From an uncultured Clostridia bacterium (GTDB taxonomy: Bacteria; Bacillota; Clostridia; Christensenellales; DTU072): a DNA stretch of 64,000 bases. The notes beneath the pieces were generated by a model, which had not been told where the DNA came from, did not search any database, and saw nothing but the letters and a program-made list of their open reading frames with translations. The translations under genes were made by a program, and so were the position numbers. Positions 48,332-48,547 of the stretch are shown here, in pieces. Within the stretch, counting starts at the first letter, position 1. Every line of letters begins with the position of its first letter. The DNA is taken from positions 1,822 through 65,821 of the forward strand of contig CALVJA010000006.1 of the NCBI GenBank assembly GCA_944331875.1, in the 5' to 3' direction.

Positions 48332-48547
48332 ACCACCGCTTTGCGCCTCTTTTCCGCCGTATCGCACGAAATTACTTAAAGCCTTTAATATCACCCCGTT
48401 TTGGAGACCAAAACGAGGCGCGAGCGGCGCATAGTCCCGCTATAGCGCCGCCCGCGTTTCGTGCGATACGACGCAAAATAGTCTGCAAATCGGCGCTATA
48501 CACCTATGTAAGGGTAAACACTAGTATCGGCAAACTGCTGTTCATGG
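48332..48547 (-). repeat. S' variant copy S'-h
   Basis: P1 is GTATCGCACGAAA (48359-48371) / TTTCGTGCGATAC (48457-48469), a perfect 13 bp. P2 is at 48394-48418 and P3 at 48426-48449. The element abuts T5. Confidence 0.7.

Follow-up and report, generated by a model that had tools for sequence, protein, structure and literature searches.

A palindromic intergenic repeat, S, forms a covarying branched hairpin and adjoins terminator-type hairpins of opposite strand polarity at gene 3' ends

Repeats scattered through bacterial genomes tend to be classed as selfish DNA, and it is seldom settled whether the hairpins they form act as DNA or as RNA. The segment at 48332-48553 raises this question. It is one copy of a repeat, S, of which an earlier note had listed 11 copies in the window (the whole 64 kb stretch of DNA analysed here). 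We wondered what S is, and on which strand and in which form its hairpin is conserved.

We built an nhmmer profile from four full copies of S and ran it over the 64 kb window. Together with seeded repeat finding and BLAST, this profile recovered each of the 11 copies, all confined to four intergenic regions (35979-37486, 42598-44383, 48190-49539 and 61937-62929). The S-sense matches lay at 36073-36268(-), 36394-36443(-), 36673-36807(-), 36811-36881(-), 36890-37079(+) and 37075-37363(+) in the first region and at 43022-43159(-), 43976-44268(+), 48326-48553(-), 48567-48703(-), 49152-49445(+) and 62715-62793(+) elsewhere, with E-values from 1e-10 to 1e-104. In the remaining 58 kb, outside the S regions, the profile gave just two noise matches (E near 1).

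Related DNA was found through exact or near-identical neighbour proteins and through spurious ORFs called inside S-T, the unit that S forms with a second repeat, T. The window and these related-strain contigs together yielded 28 distinct S cores. All the related contigs are ENA or Logan assemblies; either their genes are 96-98% identical to those of the window, or they represent further loci from this organism or a close one. The S family therefore looks restricted to one narrow, uncultured lineage. An exact-pattern scan of GTDB representative genomes gave five chance matches, the one in Spirochaetaceae lying within coding sequence. Two patterns run against JGI metagenomes gave 0 and 8 matches, none of which was S by the covariance model. 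In viral contigs, the S pattern had 0 matches and a T-arm pattern 23 single matches, about the chance number by our estimate. BLAST of plasmids and phages with S returned nothing.

When full copies are folded, the S core comes out as a branched hairpin of about 150 nt and roughly 58 pairs: an outer stem of ~27 bp leads into P1 and then into a junction that bears P3 and P2. S is not a free-standing three-stem RNA but a long imperfect palindrome with a branched tip. Blocks 2 (GCCGATTTGCCGTGGATTTCGGAGC) and 3 (GAGCCCGAAAGACGCGGTAAAGCGGTGG), taken before for single-stranded, actually pair as an imperfect outer helix, and this helix covaries in the divergent subfamilies D, I and J. The complementarity of P1 and P2, variants included, is as the earlier note described it. 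P3 is indeed a hairpin in all subfamilies, but the simple switch from CAGCG to CGGC dissolves into three versions that do not align with each other. Two 1x1 A·G mismatches and one 2x2 internal loop recur across the subfamilies. A CUAUUUU/AAAAGAG segment with its A·G mismatch is kept in 11 of 18 hand-cut cores and in most subfamilies; as mid-stem CTATTTT/AAAAGAG it is nearly invariant within the S alignment. Four folds run with RNA parameters gave z-scores of -5.5 to -6.4, and the S-sense strand scored -8.4 to -9.2 with DNA parameters.

Upstream of the core lies a non-palindromic 5' module, in which a -10-like box is followed by AGTGTTTTCC and block 1 is optional. Copies A, B and G, along with several more, have the module in full; in C, H and J no more than its end or a part of it is left, and D-type and I-type copies are without it. 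Block 1 sits in this optional module and is absent from the S' copies. Sigma-54 and sigma-28 promoter readings of TGAACAG and GCCGAT were rejected because the motifs vary across copies.

A covariance model (CM) built from 16 hand-cut S cores finds 23 full-length sense copies at E<1e-11. The copies in the window are the following.

48332-48553, minus strand: copy G (S' subfamily), the flagged copy, with its core at 48332-48496 and a short 5' module at 48497-48553; the core holds the outer arms, a 13-bp P1 (GTATCGCACGAAA/TTTCGTGCGATAC), a 12-bp P3 and P2 (CCTCGTTTTGG-TCT-CCAAAACGGGG)
48554-48710, minus strand: copy H, consisting of a 5' module with block 1, the left arm and the 5' side of P1 (nhmmer 48567-48703, E 7e-34)
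49151-49432, plus strand: copy A, full length, 5' module 49151-49272, core 49280-49429
43975-44254, plus strand: copy B, full length, core 44104-44253, 95% identical to copy A
37133-37350, plus strand: copy C, core 37201-37350, CM 165 bits
36890-37132, plus strand: copy F (S'), 3'-truncated within the inner right arm, matched by BLAST/repeat finding and nhmmer
36086-36268, minus strand: copy D, divergent arms GGCAGATTGTCGTAGATTTGCGAGC / GCCGCAAAGATGCGGCAAGATGACGG, without 5' module, CM 127 bits
36407-36881, minus strand: copy E, right arm at 36407-36437 and left part with a duplicated 5' module at 36673-36881
43003-43159, minus strand: copy I, S architecture kept, outer arms mostly different yet complementary, CM 151 bits
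62690-62836, plus strand: copy J, without P2, CM 85 bits

Copy G gave a CM match of 97 bits (E 5e-19) and a fold of -99 kcal/mol (z -6.4), with the sense strand at -90.9 versus -72.6 kcal/mol for the antisense; the corresponding strands of copy D stood at -82.5 versus -58.0 kcal/mol. Copy A matched at E 4e-102 (nhmmer) and 161 bits (CM), with a fold z of -6.0. Copies F and G are 96% complementary across 119 nt. In copy J, the arms are swapped for the complementary variants CTGTCGGGG/CCCCGACAG and TTTACGG/CCGTAAA. Copy H is cut off within the P3 loop at the start of copy G, and the 5' module of copy C is broken at its -10-like box, the junction with copy F. In copy E, a 235-nt foreign hairpin insert (36438-36672) replaces P2 and the 3' side of P1. 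This insert is unique within the window, folds at -111 kcal/mol (z -9.7), has no Rfam match and is also found in strain L013 (343-941).

We tested covariation on a CM alignment (A3) of 22 distinct S cores and 39 pairs, with shuffled alignments and slid pairing partners as controls. Cells were paired in 97.2% of cases, versus 82.3% after shuffling and 43-55% with slid partners. Two-sided changes occurred at 21 of the 39 pairs (16.0 shuffled, 2-8 slid) and in 126 cells (35.6 shuffled, 6-17 slid), of which the pair-level counts are the safer since the copies share ancestry and cell counts overstate independent events. The covariation score was 0.447, versus 0.176 for shuffled alignments (none of 500 reached the observed value) and 0.05-0.08 for slid partners. 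Two-sided changes were already present at 19 of the 39 pairs in a structure-blind MAFFT alignment. The changes split about seven sublineages (A, C, D, S', I, J and L013g types, in our grouping) and affect all helices, the outer one among them. Thus, the S fold is conserved and covaries far above both controls, as had been claimed from fewer copies. Covariation alone cannot tell RNA hairpins from mobile-DNA hairpins, because REPIN hairpins in mobile DNA also show compensatory changes (PMC3116915).

The GCGGTGG end of S had been reported to abut a T element, and in every complete S copy a T-type hairpin does follow within 0-10 nt. Our sample contained neither a T without S nor a complete S without T, which supports the earlier alternative of one composite unit, S-T, with S as its inner part. 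The T elements are covarying hairpins of 135-155 nt. Their arms fall into at least six variants, the outer arms wholly different yet complementary, around a conserved core (CCTTATGAAAAAAG-hairpin-CTTTTTTCAT) that forms a bidirectional terminator. The T elements of the window, listed without strand, are as follows.

49430-49574: T of copy A, arms GTAAATTGATTTCTTTGCCGAA / TTCGGCAAAGAAATCAATTTAC around the bidirectional terminator
48201-48331: T' of copy G, arms ATTGATCGATTGCCGAC / GTCGGCAATCGATCAAT, adjoining the stop codon of a fucosidase gene
44255-44392: T of copy B, with the PfkB stop codon TGA within the distal arm
37351-37490: T of copy C, abutting the stop codon of an ABC permease gene
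35952-36085: T of copy D, encoding the C-terminal IDLFAEKM of a GltD-like gene
36269-36406: T of copy E, the second unit in a tandem S-T S-T arrangement
42873-43003: T_I of copy I, a T variant of its own, arms GAATTTTTTGTTCGC / GCGAACAAAAAATTT, with no gene 3' end beside it
62837-62955: T_J of copy J, arms AAAAAATTCGGCAC / GTGCCGAATTTTTT, overlapping the 3' end of the MnmG gene

The distal T arms abut or overlap neighbouring stop codons (49540-49571, 44384-44392, 37487-37490, 35952-35978, 48180-48200 and 62930-62955), and that of copy A supplies the peptidase S51 gene with its final residues and stop codon. This peptidase ends in ...KLISLPKEI* in the window versus ...KLISLPKR* in strain L013; the GltD-like protein ends in ...IDLFAEKM*. 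Behind the fucosidase gene, a remnant T arm lies ahead of T', which suggests nested insertions.

Of 13 independent sites, 12 have S facing the 3' end of a gene; three consecutive genes in L049/L050 are among them. The rule that S always points this way therefore has one exception: copy I (43003-43151, -) faces the 5' side of Bmp. Five S copies in the window are on the plus strand and five on the minus strand under a cumulative GC skew that falls monotonically, so S orientation is not set by replication. The flanking genes are ordinary metabolic and transport genes in multi-gene operons of both orientations. Among the neighbours, PFOR, AdhE and FeFe hydrogenases suggest an anaerobic fermenter.

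The most informative new observation on S is its strand polarity. In 27 of the 28 cores the S-sense strand gave the stabler fold, with an average advantage of 12.5 kcal/mol (Wilcoxon p 6.5e-6). The sense folds of the 28 cores contained 137 G·U pairs and 10 A·C mismatches, the antisense folds 57 and 47. In alignment A3, G·U accounted for 49 cells at 17 pair positions and A·C for 7 cells at 6 positions. This wobble bias shows that what has been conserved is the S-sense strand in single-stranded form. The bias could partly reflect transcription-linked C-to-T mutation and not selection, an origin that would still need S-sense transcription.

T has the opposite polarity. Cut arm to arm, 19 of its 24 copies folded better on the gene-sense strand (average advantage 7.4 kcal/mol), with 88 G·U versus 4 A·C on the gene-sense strand and 38 versus 22 on the S-sense strand; T_I is among the exceptions and is more stable in the S-sense. 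Because S and T adjoin, these opposite biases do not come from a local skew in base composition. The strand asymmetry of S persists with DNA parameters, and G·T wobbles stabilise single-stranded DNA as well, so energetics alone leave room for a single-stranded DNA form. A single-stranded DNA intermediate carrying both hairpins would, however, be expected to give both the same polarity. Transcription from opposite directions would explain the pattern naturally.

We favour, at about even confidence, the reading that S is the structured, convergently read half of a lineage-specific S-T mosaic cassette, whose two hairpins would both be selected as RNA and which would have spread mainly by recombination. 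T would end the mRNA of the neighbouring gene. S would fold in transcripts that run the opposite way, from the intergenic side towards the gene 3' end, and that are stopped by the reverse-facing terminator of T. Such S-sense transcripts might start at the -10-like box of the 5' module, in modules upstream of S (K and U, below) or by read-through from a convergent gene. We conjecture that the ~58-bp S duplex is a module for RNA processing, RNA stability or the binding of a protein, perhaps as the target of an RNase III-type enzyme or by shielding the 3' ends of antisense-directed transcripts. Copies would multiply and be exchanged by duplication, unequal recombination and conversion between repeats, giving truncated tandem arrays and allelic replacement.

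The repeats are indeed rearranged. Sequences that recur within our small sample make up 78-80% of three intergenic regions, and many S copies are truncated or nested. The arrays take the form [3'-truncated S]n - full S - T - gene, with junctions at short homologies (TATAGC, GCGCCGATTTGC and ATTTT). Genes are 96-98% identical between strains, yet the S arrays differ: at the same site, beside near-identical genes, strains differ in S subfamily, in partial tandem duplications and in one inversion. The inverted segment is D-T-E in L013 (343-941 versus 36085-36671 of the window). Behind the peptidase S51 gene, itself ~98% identical, L013 carries another S subfamily (12570-12707 versus 49280-49429 of the window). 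A 115-nt unit beside copy I forms 1.8 tandem repeats with a third copy nearby (43149-43360 and 42828-42933), and its number varies between strains, with an extra unit in L013 at 6824-6997.

Other modules lie upstream of the S arrays. The K module (43460-43640 and 61980-62130 of the window; 2040-2170 of L016) comprises hairpins of three or four kinds, all with (T)TGTGAAATAA behind them; this 10-mer occurs 5 times in the window versus 0.12 expected, every time on the plus strand. U and V modules are found at 43640-43973, 62249-62625, 48720-48900 (reverse) and 48901-49150. Their sub-blocks are shuffled between loci, the order of D8 and D17 being reversed in 43798-43973 versus 62467-62617, and V recurs at another locus in strain L011 (6767-7044, 96%). 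At three loci, the modules follow one another as K - U - S - T, a hint that they may form one composite, non-coding unit about 0.9 kb long. It is possible, and we suggest it only tentatively, that S-T with K and U are convergent non-coding transcription units, with S a new structured RNA domain and the pair an insulator or processing cassette. S would then be selected in the antisense-ward RNA and T in the gene's own mRNA, and the S-T pair would manage convergent transcription at gene 3' ends.

Alternatively, S or S-T could be non-autonomous mobile DNA of the MITE or REPIN type, its single-stranded or cruciform form read by a transposase encoded elsewhere and its RNA structure incidental; we think this unlikely. 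The core arms are long inverted repeats of ~40 nt, and there are many copies. The repeat unit, however, continues 70-130 nt upstream of the left arm as the 5' module, so the left arm does not look like an element terminus and the arms would not both be terminal. Mobility would fit the 95% identity of copies A and B behind unrelated genes, and the truncated, nested and strain-variable arrays. Yet comparison with the syntenic strains L011, L013 and L017, a small sample, revealed only rearrangements, with no empty site or flanking target duplication, and, in the 64 kb and the few contigs available, the large ORFs scanned match metabolic and transporter families only, with no transposase family among them or in the fetched loci.

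In favour of mobile DNA, compensatory changes are typical of REPIN hairpins too (PMC3116915), and the S strand asymmetry holds with DNA parameters. The 5:5 orientation under one replication direction, however, is unlike that of single-stranded DNA transposons and, together with the opposite polarity of S and T that one single-stranded intermediate would not yield, disfavours the PATE or IS200-605 reading raised earlier. The S left arm (e.g. 49283-49302, GA-TTTGCCG-TG-GATTTC) and the T arm (e.g. 49436-49453, TT-GATTTC-TTTGCCG-AA) hold GATTTC and TTTGCCG in swapped order. These motifs may be a common protein-binding signature, which mobile DNA could use as a shared site, or a coincidence. T, on the other hand, varies in its arms and keeps its inner core, the reverse of transposase-bound inverted repeats.

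It is a quite improbable reading that each S is a free-standing small-RNA gene, with a promoter in the 5' module, an RNA of ~200-250 nt and T as terminator, that acts in trans, for example by binding a protein. The -10-like box and AGTGTTTTCC are conserved at the start of most copies, and a sigma-70 scan placed ATAACA-17-TATACT in copies A and B. The promoter-like 5' module (TTAGCC-17-TATACT) is nevertheless a weak candidate: only ~10 of 16 copies have an A at the second position of the -10-like box, the -35 region is poorly conserved, and sigma-70 scans gave weak sites only, with no enrichment. The module is, moreover, optional, missing from D-type and I-type copies and reduced to its end in C, H and J. 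The S-sense polarity, the CUAUUUU/AAAAGAG segment that recurs with its A·G mismatch in most subfamilies and the terminator directly downstream would suit a small RNA, but many copies are 3'-truncated array members and the subfamily sequences are too different for a common trans target to be likely. That S is neutral junk whose arms match through intrastrand conversion within the palindrome, without structural selection, is very improbable: unstable arrays with recombination junctions at microhomologies would be expected of it, but conversion would give perfect Watson-Crick arms and would not leave G·U outnumbering A·C by 14:1 on a single strand, and it would neither preserve the A·G mismatches and the 2x2 internal loop that the subfamilies have in common nor yield the opposite polarity in T.

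Does the convergently read S-T cassette that we favour belong to a known family? The earlier note could not place S in Rfam, and a covariance-model search against Rfam 15 likewise gave no match at gathering score in the whole window. A permissive scan of two repeat-rich regions returned RF00490 as the best match (27 bits versus a gathering score of 47, E 0.065); the others were miRNA or leader noise, with nothing credible at E<10. A hammerhead-like core was rejected: CGAAAC is present but CUGAUGA is absent, and there is no Rfam match. A TnpB/IscB guide RNA was set aside, with no omega-RNA or HEARO match in Rfam and no TnpA/TnpB gene nearby, and an IS110 bridge RNA reading was considered and dropped. 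Integron attC sites were dismissed because the RYYYAAC ... GTTRRRY cores are missing from the S and T arms and the neighbours are metabolic operons. An IS200/IS605-type single-stranded DNA element did not fit either: S is one symmetric hairpin, not a set of distinct subterminal hairpins, and has no link to the replication strand. S does resemble PATE and the TnpB/IscB guide RNAs in being a structured, non-coding repeat in multiple copies whose unit lacks terminal inverted repeats at its outer boundary.

S is a mosaic repeat of the BOX, ERIC or BIME kind, being multi-copy, intergenic, an imperfect palindrome and modular in size; the likeness is one of kind only. The BOX repeats of Streptococcus pneumoniae (boxA-boxB-boxC) are modular intergenic repeats whose ends form a tight duplex, and they are thought to affect co-transcribed RNA (PMC3049150). 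S resembles them in being modular and multi-copy, a few hundred nt long, with duplex-forming ends and a varying number of modules. It differs in its branched P3/P2 tip, in its strict tie to a terminator-type repeat and in its fixed convergent orientation at gene ends; no sequence relation was noticed, and the IS partner proposed for BOX has no counterpart for S. SPRITE, a pneumococcal repeat that resembles a Rho-independent terminator and is enriched at convergent-gene 3' ends (PMC3049150), is an analogue of T and not of S. T is longer (135-155 nt), has covarying outer arms over stop codons and is joined to an S of opposite polarity.

ERIC hairpins act in RNA via RNase E cleavage and Correia hairpins via RNase III (PMC3049150). 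Like S, the ERIC (IRU) and Correia (NEMIS) repeats are intergenic imperfect palindromes; they measure 100-160 nt and vary in size through internal insertions. They belong to other phyla and have other sequences, and S is antisense to the adjacent gene instead of inside its transcript. Correia elements have true terminal inverted repeats with a TA duplication, whereas S has an extra non-palindromic 5' module and no duplication. REP units are 20-40 nt long with a conserved GTAG-type head, and REPINs measure ~100 nt and are without a branched tip. A REP or REPIN-RAYT identity was rejected: the S arms are ~40 nt, the tip is a branched 60-80-nt insert, and no RAYT was seen in the DNA examined. REP, BIME and REPIN repeats share with S that they are hairpin repeats in mosaics and tandem arrays and show compensatory changes (PMC3116915); S and T, in contrast, have opposite polarities within one unit. 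By this comparison, S appears most like the palindromic repeats of the BOX, ERIC and Correia type and T most like SPRITE, and membership of a named family is not supported for either. What is new is that S and T are obligatorily paired, that the 150-nt hairpin is branched, and that strand polarity, tied to gene ends, is opposite in S and T.

Two adjoining hairpins with opposite wobble signatures, each tied to gene direction, point to RNA-level selection on both. They suggest a cassette that would end a gene on one strand and handle incoming antisense transcription on the other. If this is not confirmed, S remains a well-characterised lineage-specific mosaic repeat. If it is, interspersed repeats would have been recruited, or built, as transcription modules at gene ends, and S would be a new structured RNA domain.
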